Of a stretch of 32,000 bases of DNA, positions 21,003 through 32,000 are shown piece by piece. The notes below the pieces were generated by a model, which searched no databases, was not told the origin of the DNA, and saw only the letters and a list, made by a program, of their open reading frames with translations. The stretch's first letter is position 1. The number at the start of each line of letters is the position of its first letter. The position numbers and the translations under genes are program-made. Source of the DNA: Dickeya dadantii NCPPB 898 (GTDB taxonomy: Bacteria; Pseudomonadota; Gammaproteobacteria; Enterobacterales; Enterobacteriaceae); the NCBI RefSeq assembly GCF_000406145.1, contig NZ_CM001976.1, forward strand, positions 1,652,551-1,684,550, written 5' to 3'.

Positions 21003-22589
21003 TCAGCGGAAGCGCCAGGCAGTCAGACGCCGTTCCGCCAGCGTGATGAGCCGATAAAATAGTGTGCTGACCAGTGCTATCAGCACCACGCCGGCGATCA
21101 CCCGTTCCGACTGGAACAGTTGCTGGGCGCGGATCATCATGCTGCCAATACCGTTGCCGGAAGCGATGAAGTATTCCGCGCCGATGGTGCCGACCCAGGC
21201 GTGCATCAGCGACAAGCGTAGCCCGGAGAACAGCGCCGGCAGCATCGCCGGCAACGTCAGCCACCGCAGCCGCTGCCGCGCGCTGAGGCGCAACACGCGC
21301 GCGGTTTCCAGCAGCGACGGCGGCAGATGGCGAACGCCCTGATAGCTTGCCAGCAGCGCGGGGAAAAACGCTGCCAGCGCGATGAACACCACTTTGGCGC
21401 TCTCTTCCATCCCGAACCAGGCGGTGAGCAGCGGCAGCCAGGCGAACAGCGCGACGCTGCGCAGCGCGGAGAGCAGCGGCGTCAGCAGACGATCGGCCAC
21501 GCGGTGGCGACCCAGCAGACCGCCCAACAGGCAGCCCAGGCCGGCTCCCAGCGCGAACCCCGCCAGCGTGCGGGACAGGCTGGCGCTCAGCGCGGAGGTC
21601 AATTCCCCGCTGCTCAACCCGGCCAGCAAGGCGGTCACCACCTCACGAGGCGCGGGCAGAAACGCGGCATGCACCCATTGCCGATCCGTGGCAAGTTGCC
21701 AGAGCAGGCACAATAGCGCGGGCAGGATCCAGCCGGCCAGCGCGTGCCAGGCGGCGTGCGGCGTCGGGCTTTCGTGGCTCAGCACCGGCGCAGGCCAGAA
21801 AATCCAGCGCCGTTCCAGCCGTTGCAGCGCCTGCTCGCCCGCCAGACCGAACGCGCCGATCGCCAGTATGCAGACGAACACCAGATCCAGCATAAACAGC
21901 TGACGACTTTGCACCATCAGGTAACCCAGCCCTTCGCTGGATGCCAGCAACTCCACCGCGATCAACGACACCCAGCCTTGCGAGAACGCCAGCCGCGCGC
22001 CGGTCATCACGTACGGCAGCATGGCGGGGATCACCAACCGGCGCAGCCGGGTCAACCGGGGCAGGCGCAGCGTGCGCGCCATCTCGTAGAGTGTCTGCGG
22101 CGTCTGGCGGATGCCGGCGCAGGTGCACAGCGTGACCGGCACCGTCACCGCCTTGATCAGCACCACCAGTTTCAGCGCTTCGCCGATACCCAGCGCCAGC
22201 ATCAACAGCGGGATCCAGGCCAGCGTCGGGATTTGCGCCAGCACGTTGAACAGCGGCATGCCGAGCCGGTCCAGCGTGCGGCTAAGGCCAAACAGCACGC
22301 CGAGCGTCAGGCCGAGCGCGATGCCGCCCGCCAGCCCGAACGCCAGCCGGGCAAGGCTAACCAGTAACTGGGGTGCCAGCTCCTGCGGAATGAAGTCGCG
22401 CGCGCTGTCCGCCACAGTGGCGGGGGAAGGCAGAATTTGTTCCGACATCCAGTCGTAATGGCTGGCGAGCCACCAGCCGCACACCAGCAGCAGCGGCATC
22501 AGCAGTGCGCCGCACGCCGCCGACAGCGGGGCGAACGACCACGGGCGCGGCGGGTTAAGCGTCAGTTTGGGCATCGTCGACATCGTCAT
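21003..22589 (-). CDS. Fused ABC transporter permease with two tandem NitT/TauT-family (SsuC/TauC-like) transmembrane domains, 528 aa
   Basis: There are two homologous halves, each with an EAA-type loop: YEMARTLRLPRLTRLRRLVIPAMLPYVMTGARLAF and LETARVLRLSARQRLRWLTLPAMLPALFSGLRLSL. The start lies 12 nt after the exbD stop. Confidence 0.85.
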   Translation of the reverse strand: MTMSTMPKLTLNPPRPWSFAPLSAACGALLMPLLLVCGWWLASHYDWMSEQILPSPATVADSARDFIPQELAPQLLVSLARLAFGLAGGIALGLTLGVLFGLSRTLDRLGMPLFNVLAQIPTLAWIPLLMLALGIGEALKLVVLIKAVTVPVTLCTCAGIRQTPQTLYEMARTLRLPRLTRLRRLVIPAMLPYVMTGARLAFSQGWVSLIAVELLASSEGLGYLMVQSRQLFMLDLVFVCILAIGAFGLAGEQALQRLERRWIFWPAPVLSHESPTPHAAWHALAGWILPALLCLLWQLATDRQWVHAAFLPAPREVVTALLAGLSSGELTSALSASLSRTLAGFALGAGLGCLLGGLLGRHRVADRLLTPLLSALRSVALFAWLPLLTAWFGMEESAKVVFIALAAFFPALLASYQGVRHLPPSLLETARVLRLSARQRLRWLTLPAMLPALFSGLRLSLMHAWVGTIGAEYFIASGNGIGSMMIRAQQLFQSERVIAGVVLIALVSTLFYRLITLAERRLTAWRFR

Positions 22590-22601
22590 GGCGTGCGGTG
22601 T

Positions 22602-23003
22602 TTACTTGCGGGTTAGTAACGACAAACGGGTGATGCCCGCTTTTTCCAGATCGGCCAGCAGCGCGGCCACCGCGCCATAGTTGGCGGCGTCTTCCGCCTG
22701 CACCTGCACCACCAGCTCCGGATTGGCGGCTTTGGCCTGTTGCAGGCGCGCCGTCAACGCTTCGCGGGGCAGCGCTTCCTTGTCGATAAACAGCTGCTGC
22801 GACGCATCAAGGCTTACCACCAGCGGACGCGGCGAATCGGCCGGCGCCACCGCCGCCGTTTTGGGCAGGCGAATCGGGATGCTGTTGGTCAGCATCGGCG
22901 CGGTGACGATAAACACCACCAGCAGCACCAGCATCACGTCCACCAGCGGGGTGATGTTCATTTCGCTCATCACCTCGTCATTGTCGCGGGAAGCAAACGC
23001 CAT
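22602..23003 (-). CDS. exbD: ExbD/TolR-family biopolymer transport protein, 133 aa
   Basis: MSEMNITPLVDVMLVLLVVFIVTAP (conserved Asp within the TM helix) plus a periplasmic domain. 2 nt gap to exbB. Confidence 0.85.
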   Translation of the reverse strand: MAFASRDNDEVMSEMNITPLVDVMLVLLVVFIVTAPMLTNSIPIRLPKTAAVAPADSPRPLVVSLDASQQLFIDKEALPREALTARLQQAKAANPELVVQVQAEDAANYGAVAALLADLEKAGITRLSLLTRK

Positions 23004-23005
23004 GA

Positions 23006-23704
23006 TTACACCACCTCCCGGATCGTCTGCACCGCATACGGCGCGGCCGGTTGCTCCGGGGCGAGGCGGAACTCCTGCGCCTGCGCCACGCTATAAATGT
23101 CATGGGCAAAGTCGTCCATGTCGGCCACTTCCAGCTTCAGCCGGCGCAGAAAATAGTTGTAAATCAGCACCGCGGGCACAGCCACCGCGATGCCGATACC
23201 GGTGGCGATCAACGCATTGCCGATAGGACCGGCGACGGTGTCCAGACTGGCGGAGCCAGACTGACCAATGGTCTGCAACGCCGCCATGATGCCCCACACG
23301 GTGCCGAACAGGCCGATGAACGGCGAGGTGGTGCCGATGCTGGCCAGCAACGCCAGGCCGTTTTCCAGCGCGCGACGCTCGCGCTGGATTTGCTGCTGCA
23401 ACGCCCGCTCGACCCGGTCTTGCAGATGCGCGATCGGCGTGATGCGGTCTTTCACCCGTTCCAGCGTCAGCTGTGTGGCGCGCGCCAGGTTCGCCAGCGC
23501 GCCGGGATGGGCGACATCGCGCAGCGCGGCGTCGATGTTTTCCCGCTGCCAGAACAGCTGGCGGAACTGTTGATTACGCCGCCGCTGGCGGGCGTACTGC
23601 GCCAGTTTGAGCAGCCCGATGGACCAGGTGACGAGCGAGAAAAACAGCAGCAACAGGATCACGCCCCCTTCCGGGGACAGCAGAGCGATATGTTCGAGCG
23701 TCAT
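23006..23704 (-). CDS. exbB: MotA/TolQ/ExbB-family proton channel protein, 232 aa
   Basis: LASIGTTSPFIGLFGTVWGIMAAL...AGPIGNALIATGIGIAVAVPAVLIYNYF is the ExbB signature region. The start lies 13 nt after the tonB stop. Confidence 0.9.
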   Translation of the reverse strand: MTLEHIALLSPEGGVILLLLFFSLVTWSIGLLKLAQYARQRRRNQQFRQLFWQRENIDAALRDVAHPGALANLARATQLTLERVKDRITPIAHLQDRVERALQQQIQRERRALENGLALLASIGTTSPFIGLFGTVWGIMAALQTIGQSGSASLDTVAGPIGNALIATGIGIAVAVPAVLIYNYFLRRLKLEVADMDDFAHDIYSVAQAQEFRLAPEQPAAPYAVQTIREVV

Positions 23705-31289: not shown

Positions 31290-31380
31290 CGATACGTCAG
31301 GCAACGACGGGCCAGATAGCCACAGGCCCGATAACGGCGCAATCCGGATAATCACGCCCGCCGCAGCGGGCTGCAACCGT

Positions 31381-31438
31381 ACATCATCACAATAAAACAT
31401 CATCACAATAAAACATCATCACAACAGAACATCATCAG
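31381..31438. repeat. 16-bp tandem repeat, about 3.6 copies (ACATCATCACAATAAA)
   Basis: Exact copies at 31381-31396 and 31397-31412. A variant acatcatcacaacaga lies at 31413-31428. A partial acatcatcag at 31429-31438 runs into the AGGA/ATG of the next ORF. Confidence 0.9.
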
Positions 31439-31448
31439 GACATGATCA

Positions 31449-32000
31449 ATGACGGACACAGGCTATAGCGCACAGCGCACGGTTATGGAAAGCCACGCCG
31501 GTCAGGCGTGTACCGCCGCCACGGAAGGCGATTTTCACCAGCAATCAAATCCCCATCAATTCACCCTGCAATGGGCGCAAGCCGCTGACGGAAAACCGTT
31601 GTGCTGGCGGGTGGAGCAGGAAGATCCGGCGCGCACCCGCATCGGTGTTGACGAACACGCGTTGACGCTGGACAGCGCCGCCGGGCTGACGGTGTGGCTC
31701 GACCAGCCGCTATCCGGCAGGTATCGCATCAGTTATCTGCGCGAAGTCTTGGTGCAGGGGCAGCCGAACGATCGGCTTTCCGATCTCAATCAGTTTTGGG
31801 CGGCGCGGGACCCGGCTCGCGCGTCGTTGTTCACCCGTCACGGGGTGCTGGGTGAATACGATAATCTGGCGCTGTATTACGTTGGCATGGGCGGCAACTG
31901 GAACAGCACCACCCGTTTTCGCTACTACAACGGCCTCGGCGAGCGACAGTTGCTGGGGGAGTTCACCGATGAAGCGCATTTGCTGCGCGCCGGGCAGCGT
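31449..32000 (+). CDS. Uncharacterised protein, N-terminal 184 aa (continues past the window); possibly a concanavalin-A-like/DUF-type domain
   Basis: Absent from the ORF track because it has no stop in the window. My translation is MTDTGYSAQRTVMESHAGQ...LSDLNQFWAARDPARASLF...LALYYVGMGGNWNSTTRFRYYNGLGERQLLGEF. It has host-like codon usage and no signal peptide. The motif DLN.FW....LYYVG.GGN.N.TTRFR.Y reminds me of lectin/glucanase-fold DUFs (DUF1961/DUF6250-like), unverified. Confidence 0.55.
   Translation, partial: MTDTGYSAQRTVMESHAGQACTAATEGDFHQQSNPHQFTLQWAQAADGKPLCWRVEQEDPARTRIGVDEHALTLDSAAGLTVWLDQPLSGRYRISYLREVLVQGQPNDRLSDLNQFWAARDPARASLFTRHGVLGEYDNLALYYVGMGGNWNSTTRFRYYNGLGERQLLGEFTDEAHLLRAGQR

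Follow-up and report, generated by a model that had tools for sequence, protein, structure and literature searches.

A receptor-centred locus of Dickeya dadantii combining a PL26 lyase homologue with an Ats-type importer: a candidate route for rhamnogalacturonan fragments

The subject of this report is a locus of eight genes, arranged in two divergent arms, in a window of 32,000 nucleotides of Dickeya dadantii NCPPB 898 (contig NZ_CM001976.1, positions 1,652,551 to 1,684,550; the window is the whole stretch of DNA analysed, and coordinates given below are its own). The unit is a receptor-centred glycan locus that combines a polysaccharide lyase homologue of family PL26, a YesU-like partner protein, an Ats-type importer and a TonB system of its own; its parts have been named piecemeal, and it has never been studied as a whole. 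We read it as a TonB-dependent glycan-utilization locus, similar to the carbohydrate-utilization (CUT) loci of Xanthomonas, that would serve the use of rhamnose-uronate oligosaccharides; these would most probably derive from rhamnogalacturonan I (RG-I), the "hairy regions" of plant pectin, and we consider the balance of evidence slightly favourable to this reading.

The layout is that described in the first-pass annotation, an earlier note made from the sequence of the window. The two arms diverge from a 508-bp AT-rich control region (24591-25098; 42.9% GC vs 61.3% for the whole window). On the minus strand tonB (24590-23718), exbB (23704-23006), exbD (23003-22602) and a gene for a fused double permease (22589-21003) follow one another with intergenic gaps of 13, 2 and 12 nt; the plus strand carries the genes for a periplasmic binding protein of AtsR/SsuA type (25099-26112), a TonB-dependent receptor (26204-28510, counted from the likely ATG at 26204 in an open reading frame (ORF) that opens at GTG 26198), a 922-residue protein with a twin-arginine translocation (Tat) motif (28521-31289, starting 10 nt past the receptor stop) and a further protein whose ORF (31449-32000) is cut by the end of the window. 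In a profile search each ORF found strong support from a Pfam family.

The 922-residue protein and the last ORF were regarded in the first-pass annotation as two uncharacterised proteins, a description that can now be replaced for both. By its sequence, the 922-residue protein is a homologue of PcRGLX, the exo-rhamnogalacturonan lyase of Penicillium chrysogenum and founding member of CAZy family PL26 (PDB 5xq3, 5xqg, 5xqj, 5xqo). The three domains of PcRGLX (PcRGLX_1st, 2nd and 3rd; PF19501, PF21345 and PF21346) are matched in order, near full length and far above cutoff, with E-values of 1e-26, 7e-142 and 7e-171, giving the three-domain PL26 architecture of an N-terminal RIFT barrel, a central beta-sandwich and a C-terminal alpha/alpha toroid; when compared by phmmer with the crystallised enzyme (PDB 5xq3), residues 47-897 align with residues 9-894 (E 2.2e-219, 734 bits). 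A long conserved block, WYGF.D.GD.MHTYD.DRH.WRYDVGGYAWDNSELS...RHTGEVDV.H, is common to the two proteins, and the long invariant motifs of the bacterial PL26 family are also present in PcRGLX. However, PcRGLX is a secreted fungal enzyme, whereas the protein considered here is bacterial, predicted to be Tat-exported, encoded in a receptor/ABC locus and paired with a DUF6250 protein. The prediction of export comes from the twin-arginine motif TSRRRFIRN in the signal region MPLHDTSRRRFIRNGALLALSAPLWNRALA, where a motif of S/T-R-R-x-F-L-K type precedes a hydrophobic stretch and an AxA site; many PL26 homologues are named Tat signal proteins in their source annotations.

The gene is already listed in Dickeya pectinase inventories as rhiF, a PL26 "rhamnogalacturonate lyase" (PMC10319131; bioRxiv 10.1101/568105), and according to a species table it is present in some Dickeya species and absent in several, occurring only in species that also have rhiE (PMC10319131). 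No experiments on rhiF, and no mention of its neighbour genes, were found in the literature searched. An association with RG-I breakdown is seen in the genomic context of the family: among 90 loci encoding a relative of the PL26 protein, which form the comparison set of this work, a PL11 lyase and/or a GDSL esterase is encoded within 10 kb of PL26 in 33, and in Chitinophaga silvisoli the genes form an operon of PL11 RG lyase, PL26, DUF6250 and GDSL esterase.

The last ORF of the plus arm, of which the window holds the first 184 residues, belongs to Pfam family DUF6250 (E 2e-43), whose members in related loci are 214-250 residues long. The AlphaFold2 (AF2) model of the D. dadantii orthologue shows a confident beta-sandwich after ~40 disordered residues (pLDDT 87.6), and the best Foldseek match of this model is B. 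subtilis YesU (PDB 1oq1, E 2.5e-8), followed by CBM66 and the Emp47p/VIP36 lectins. Identity to YesU is 18%, with a TM-score of 0.58 when normalised to the query and 0.65 when normalised to the target; the protein is thus, as modelled, a YesU-like beta-sandwich of the lectin/ConA type. A sequence search of the PDB with DUF6250 returned spurious antibody matches only, and no literature on DUF6250 was found. YesU is a glycan-binding lectin encoded beside an RG acetylesterase in the RG-I cluster of Bacillus (PMC6120924). In that cluster of B. subtilis (yes/yte, with YesT/RhgT, YesU, YesW and YesX) the YesU-type lectin-fold protein stands beside RG-I lyases as well as an acetylesterase, an arrangement mirrored by the Chitinophaga PL11-PL26-DUF6250-GDSL operon. 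The likeness of DUF6250 to YesU is one of fold only; the Bacillus lyases belong to PL11 instead of PL26, and the organism lacks both an outer membrane and a receptor.

The export signals of DUF6250 differ among lineages. The proteins of Bacteroidota, Verrucomicrobia and Burkholderia have their own Sec or lipoprotein signal, and in 18 proteins of Oxalobacteraceae DUF6250 is fused through a linker of ~10 residues to the C-terminus of a Tat-PL26. By comparison of N-termini, those of Dickeya, Pectobacterium, Brenneria and Pseudomonas have neither a signal peptide nor an alternative upstream start; a disordered N-terminal tail is present in Dickeya, Pectobacterium and Pseudomonas. The signal-less DUF6250 proteins are either cytoplasmic in these lineages or moved through the Tat system as a folded complex with PL26. 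An AF2 model of a natural PL26::DUF6250 fusion has a pTM of 0.77; its output gives no inter-domain contacts.

The receptor (768 residues) has a Pfam Plug domain (E 1e-13) and a TonB_dep_Rec barrel (E 3e-32) but is without an N-terminal signalling domain; its N-terminus contains the V.V.AQRR motif that the first-pass annotation had pointed out, as RVQVNAQRR. Receptor orthologues of 44-49% identity are encoded directly upstream of PL26 in Oxalobacteraceae that lack Ats parts, and the receptor-PL26 pair is conserved in Gamma- and Betaproteobacteria, which argues that this receptor goes with the lyase. The energising complex appears complete, with all three Pfam domains encoded by genes 13 and 2 nt apart: a TonB-family protein of 290 residues made up of an anchor at the N-terminus, a spacer rich in Pro and Ala and a TonB_C domain (E 8e-22), an ExbB-family proton channel of 232 residues (MotA_ExbB, E 1e-34) and an ExbD-family protein of 133 residues (ExbD, E 2e-30). 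The locus ExbD scores 81 bits against the enterobacterial ExbD model of NCBIfam (cutoff 216) and ExbB scores 101 bits against the corresponding ExbB model (cutoff 402); TonB, ExbB and ExbD of the locus are not the enterobacterial housekeeping orthologues, and ExbD, being so far below its cutoff, is assigned to a second, non-housekeeping system. Between the TonB of the window and its counterparts in the loci of relatives, identity is 47-86%.

Comparison across genera shows which parts of the locus travel together. In Pectobacterium and Brenneria an arm of ATPase, permease, exbD, exbB and tonB diverges from an arm of binding protein, receptor, PL26 and DUF6250, beyond which comes a convergent LysR gene. 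The same gene set, without the ATPase, is found at one and the same chromosomal site in three Dickeya genomes (that of the window, D. fangzhongdai and LT615367.1), with a GGDEF gene as conserved left neighbour in all three. In Pseudomonas (P. cichorii, P. capsici and strain StFLB209) binding protein, receptor, PL26 and DUF6250 are found with LysR, and no tonB, exbBD or permease gene lies within 10 kb. The order of the four genes with LysR is thus kept in Dickeya, Pectobacterium, Brenneria and Pseudomonas. In Oxalobacteraceae the receptor is directly followed by the single fused PL26-DUF6250 gene, and in Bacteroidota, Verrucomicrobia, Actinomycetota and other Burkholderiales PL26 is often near DUF6250. 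From this distribution the evolutionary core of the locus is PL26 with DUF6250, joined in Proteobacteria by this type of receptor; the binding protein and LysR would be later additions in Gammaproteobacteria, and the TonB complex and the ABC membrane parts later additions in Enterobacterales.

The proposal that the locus is accessory and probably horizontally acquired stands in its first part, given the rhiF presence/absence table, and is not supported as far as a recent island is concerned. The locus lies at a different chromosomal site in Pectobacterium than in Dickeya. Its third-position GC content (GC3) of 0.70-0.85 is inside the range of the flanking genes (0.62-0.87) and gives no island signal; one reason that composition cannot mark an island here is that a block of co-directional flanking genes (14797-17912; FAD-dependent oxidoreductase, GNAT acetyltransferase and D-2-hydroxyacid dehydrogenase) is as GC-rich as the locus, at 66-69% GC. 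The lack of a composition signal and the common site in three Dickeya genomes point to an old accessory cluster with losses rather than a recent insertion. The best protein matches are 93% identical for PL26 (in D. fangzhongdai) and 91% for DUF6250 (in D. dadantii). The genome LT615367.1, which has the full rhiF locus, is presumably D. aquatica 174/2, a strain that is rhiF-negative in Table 9 of PMC10319131; either our identification or the table entry is wrong.

All genes of the locus are under purifying selection (dN/dS 0.04-0.34). In the control region, an intergenic alignment of five Dickeya and Pectobacterium loci has three conserved blocks. The first contains a candidate sigma-70 promoter for the tonB arm (24750-24723, minus strand; TTGACA-16-AAGAAT, 10/12 matches in a promoter scan), whose hexamers coincide with alignment columns that are conserved in all five loci; it is adjoined by an ATATC..GATAT-like conserved element (~24757-24775). 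The most strongly conserved block (24876-24917; GGCTAATGCAT...ATAGTTTTTTT..GTT..TGCAT) is near-invariant in Dickeya and Pectobacterium and is a candidate binding site of the LysR regulator of the locus. The third block, on the side of the binding-protein arm (24981-25013, plus strand; TATTAGCCAG..TTTAAATGT, with hexamers TTAGCC-17-TTAAAT), was missed by the promoter scan and could be a weak, activator-dependent promoter of the plus arm. When the control region was scanned at moderate stringency, no convincing box for Fur, KdgR or CRP emerged, and an Rfam scan of the same region gave noise only. The convergent LysR gene lies 3' of DUF6250 in the loci of two Dickeya genomes, Pectobacterium, Brenneria and Pseudomonas, a position beyond the end of the window, and conserved blocks that contain no Fur, KdgR or CRP box and no Rfam element would fit co-regulation by this regulator. 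No data on expression of the locus were found in the literature searched.

Put together, these parts suggest the following pathway. Oligosaccharides set free extracellularly, as by the secreted PL4 lyase RhiE, would bind the receptor and be imported into the periplasm with energy from the locus's own TonB-ExbB-ExbD complex. There the Tat-exported RhiF would trim them exolytically to unsaturated GalA-Rha units, assisted by the lectin-like DUF6250 as carbohydrate-binding partner. The AtsR-like binding protein would capture the anionic product and pass it to the AtsB-like fused permease, an importer completed in Pectobacterium and Brenneria by a cognate ATPase. The convergent LysR regulator, acting at conserved operators in the 508-bp region, would co-regulate both arms. 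In outline, the first-pass annotation had proposed just such a locus, importing a non-siderophore substrate that a Tat-exported enzyme would process in the periplasm, and the sequence evidence supports it. What speaks for the RG-I reading is the identity of the PL26 protein, the PL11 and esterase neighbours of its relatives, the YesU-like DUF6250, the linkage of receptor and lyase, the conserved gene order, the selective constraint, the two candidate promoters and the strongly conserved block of the shared intergenic region, the lack of a Fur box and of siderophore-type matches above cutoff, and the listing of rhiF, in species with rhiE only, as a PL26 lyase.

Several facts weigh on the other side. 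KdgR and CRP sites, which are typical of the Dickeya pectin regulon, were not found in the control region, and GH105 hydrolase, PL11 lyase and esterase are all absent from this locus. No measured activity of any bacterial PL26 was found in the literature searched. The lack of a signal peptide means that a periplasmic DUF6250 requires an extra assumption. Moreover, the binding protein, the permease and the ATPase of relatives are 54-58% identical to the sulfate-ester system AtsRBC of P. aeruginosa, and identity of this order often goes with the same class of ligand; to our knowledge, no importer of the NitT/TauT family carries a sugar. The Pseudomonas relatives keep the binding protein without a nearby permease, so that its role as a transport partner is not secure.

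The likeness to AtsRBC is also the foundation of the main rival reading, in which the locus is a sulfur-scavenging system of the Ats/Sft type, whose sftP-like receptor and AtsR/AtsB-like importer would bring in a sulfated compound when sulfate is limiting. Any part played by PL26 and DUF6250 would be to depolymerise a sulfated rhamnose-uronate glycan (the Rha-(1,4)-uronate bond also occurs in ulvan-like chemistry), and the AtsR-like protein would then bind the sulfated disaccharide so produced. The reference to the Ats and Sft systems in the first-pass annotation proved sound. The permease (528 residues, two BPD_transp_1 domains, E 1e-54; NitT/TauT family) is of the AtsB type and 54% identical over 487 residues to P. 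aeruginosa AtsB, which is likewise fused (538 residues), and the binding protein (337 residues, with a Sec signal ending AQA; Pfam NMT1, E 5e-20) is 56% identical over 304 residues to AtsR. The layout of the ats locus of P. aeruginosa, in which atsR diverges from fused atsB followed by atsC and atsA, is also the same, and the Pectobacterium ATPase is 57-60% identical to Pseudomonas proteins of the AtsC/SsuB type. Matches to more specific models are weaker: those of the permease to SaoP, SsuC and TauC of NCBIfam fall below cutoff, and the binding protein scores 135 bits against SsuA_fam (cutoff 163.5), with a PDB match to SsuA (3uif) at E 3e-36.

Two further observations are consistent with sulfur scavenging. 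Several locus proteins are poor in Cys and Met, a pattern of sulfate-starvation proteins: Cys+Met amounts to 0.96% in the binding protein, 0.87% in ExbB, 0.35% in TonB and 1.9% in PL26, vs 3.2-4.7% in most other proteins of the window. In two Pseudomonas loci a gene for a luciferase-like monooxygenase (LLM) stands upstream of the operon (immediately, at 5026-6333 of L087, or shortly, at 1358-2686 of L004), and this class of monooxygenase is typical of organosulfur scavenging. In P. putida a receptor and a LysR regulator, sftP and sftR, accompany the sulfate-ester system. The names themselves have reached the locus: the D. dadantii 3937 annotation calls genes sftP, atsR and "astB", with PL26 and DUF6250 "hypothetical" (PMC4079955), and the LysR of the P. 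versatile locus is annotated SftR. These names are annotations by similarity. Compared with the LysR encoded beside P. aeruginosa atsA, that of the locus shows no more than 21-24% identity.

Other findings argue against sulfur scavenging and lead us to judge it unlikely. A sulfatase or AtsK-type (TauD) dioxygenase is absent from the locus in every genome examined, whereas the P. aeruginosa ats locus has sulfatase and TauD domains where the locus described here has PL26 and DUF6250. Receptor, PL26 and DUF6250 co-occur in Oxalobacteraceae without any Ats part, and the PL26 family associates with RG-I enzymes and not with sulfatases. The low content of Cys and Met is a family-wide trait of PL26, equally low where there is no Ats context (1.71% in the Oxalobacteraceae fusions, 1.73% in Enterobacterales), and is also typical of receptors generally. 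Finally, the PL26-linked binding proteins are 52-56% identical to AtsR and 52-60% identical to each other across genera; being no closer to AtsR than to each other, they appear to be a sister group of AtsR and not its orthologues.

A different difficulty is the ATPase itself, which also means that "self-contained", as the locus had been described in the first-pass annotation, cannot be upheld. AtsRBC has the ATPase AtsC, and the Pectobacterium and Brenneria loci have an ABC ATPase gene at the place that is occupied in the window by a non-coding gap of 739 bp (20264-21002) between the permease and GGDEF genes; no ABC ATPase gene is present in the window or adjoining the locus. A tblastn search with the Pectobacterium ATPase gave no match better than E 0.3 in this gap or anywhere in the window, and no remnant was found in the homologous gaps of the two other Dickeya genomes. 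No Dickeya protein is among the best 120 homologues of the Pectobacterium ATPase listed, all of at least 57% identity. With this gene gone, the Dickeya permease must borrow an ATPase from elsewhere, or the product enters through another carrier, such as RhiT.

The second of these options corresponds to a half-decayed locus, in which the ABC arm of Dickeya is functionless while receptor, TonB complex, PL26 and DUF6250 work and the product enters via an unlinked carrier such as RhiT. Such decay would fit the clean loss of an ATPase gene that is present in Pectobacterium, Brenneria and other Enterobacterales, the lack of a Dickeya protein among those best homologues, and the fact that Pseudomonas has a four-gene arm without any linked permease; it would also fit the dN/dS of the permease vs the most distant Dickeya genome, which at 0.32 is the highest in the locus apart from that of TonB. 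Nevertheless, the permease ORF is intact (520-528 residues) in all three Dickeya genomes across a dS of 0.8, with dN/dS values (0.16-0.32) clearly below 1; both of its ATPase-coupling loops are as conserved as in the ATPase-bearing genomes; and its dN/dS of 0.09-0.14 places the binding-protein gene with the most constrained of the locus. We therefore consider a functionless ABC arm quite improbable. The most economical reading of these sequence comparisons is that the Dickeya permease is served by an ATPase encoded elsewhere, decay of the ABC arm being the weaker alternative.

A still more specific proposal concerns both the signal-less DUF6250 and the Ats-type importer. DUF6250 may hitch-hike on the Tat-exported PL26 as a pre-folded complex, and an importer of AtsRBC type may have been recruited for an acidic or sulfated disaccharide, driven in Dickeya by an ATPase shared in trans. 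As a joint claim this is tentative and rather doubtful. Should the importer carry such a disaccharide, this would be the first carbohydrate substrate for the NitT/TauT ABC family.

A receptor linked to tonB-exbBD usually serves iron uptake, and the best NCBIfam and PDB matches of the receptor are indeed of siderophore type (TonB-siderophor, 157 bits; pesticin receptor 4epa, 8.5e-21), but a locus for iron, siderophore or other metallophore uptake is hardly credible, as the receptor falls below the cutoff of every siderophore, haem and B12 model of NCBIfam, the control region is without a Fur box, the binding protein is of NMT1/SsuA type and not of a siderophore-binding type, and what is conserved alongside the receptor is a homologue of a polysaccharide lyase together with a protein of lectin fold.

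Among known systems, the RG-I reading has a close parallel in the Xanthomonas CUT loci and, more loosely, in the polysaccharide-utilization loci (PULs) of Bacteroidota, where receptor, carbohydrate-active enzyme, inner-membrane transporter and regulator are clustered by the same logic to take up a plant glycan. The likeness to CUT loci raised in the first-pass annotation thus holds in logic: the receptor is clustered with a carbohydrate-active enzyme, a permease is linked in the divergent arm, and LysR is linked in relatives. Unlike CUT loci, the locus has its own tonB-exbB-exbD, an ABC system of AtsRBC type with a binding protein in place of a carrier of the major facilitator superfamily (MFS) type, and a LysR regulator. 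The same presumed substrate is handled in the same organism by the rhiE/rhiT-rhiN pathway for RG-I, reportedly described by Hugouvieux-Cotte-Pattat in 2004, and rhiF is listed together with rhiE as a rhamnogalacturonate lyase; rhiF differs in being unlinked to that pathway, in that its product is predicted to be periplasmic and not secreted, and in having its own uptake machinery. As the first-pass annotation had surmised, no experimentally characterised system with exactly this gene set was found in the literature searched, nor was any receptor-based sugar uptake in Pectobacteriaceae.

The surroundings of the locus have several features of their own. Two short tandem arrays were found by Tandem Repeats Finder (TRF), one in the permease-GGDEF gap (20776-20838; 4.2 copies of the 15-nt unit TAATTGTTCCGTCAA) and one in the spacer between PL26 and DUF6250 (31381-31437; 3.6 copies of the 16-nt unit ACATCATCACAATAAA, score 100), a spacer that measures 159 nt here vs 28-96 nt in relatives. 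No Pfam match was obtained for a 76-aa ORF fragment within the gap, and a LysE-type pseudogene suspected downstream of the permease was dropped, being without Pfam support. The flanks of the window contain citF, acnB, an fdn-like operon, raf-like genes and the GGDEF gene. The ORF of this GGDEF diguanylate cyclase (18851-20263) overlaps by ~260 nt with an EVE-domain ORF (18205-19110), both on the minus strand; the EVE domain occupies residues 147-278 of its ORF, and the true EVE start is thus probably internal. At 13483-14469 (minus strand), between the raf-like genes and the high-GC block, an ORF of 328 residues has a papain-family C1 cysteine peptidase domain (E 1e-12), which seems unusual for an enterobacterial plant pathogen. 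The raf-like genes themselves (8701-13330) form a raffinose/melibiose-type set of LacI-family repressor, GH36 alpha-galactosidase and LacY-type permease; in D. dadantii the ability to use melibiose serves to mark subspecies (PMC10319131). Beyond the LysR gene, two Dickeya loci carry a 2OG-Fe(II) oxygenase and a MetQ/MetN/MetI-like ABC set (15984-19319 of L001; 16041-19462 of L086, which is LT615367.1) and, further on, an arylsulfotransferase-thioredoxin protein (21566-22769 of L001; 21431-22769 of L086), a sulfur-flavoured neighbourhood that is absent beside the Pectobacterium locus.

Soft-rot Pectobacteriaceae are a model for bacterial pectin breakdown, and TonB-dependent receptors are not among the routes known there for uptake of pectin fragments, which run through porins and the Tog and Rhi carriers. 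If the RG-I reading is true, rhamnogalacturonan fragments would have an energised way across the outer membrane, rhiF and the DUF6250/YesU protein class would gain a physiological role, and bacterial PL26, which is widespread in soil and plant-associated bacteria, a first functional context; the locus would also show an ABC importer of sulfate-ester type put to use in a glycan pathway. If instead sulfur scavenging is right, current inventories based on CAZy would have to be revised where they place rhiF among the pectinases. That Dickeya has cleanly lost the ATPase while keeping the permease offers a natural test case for the sharing of ATPases among ABC importers.

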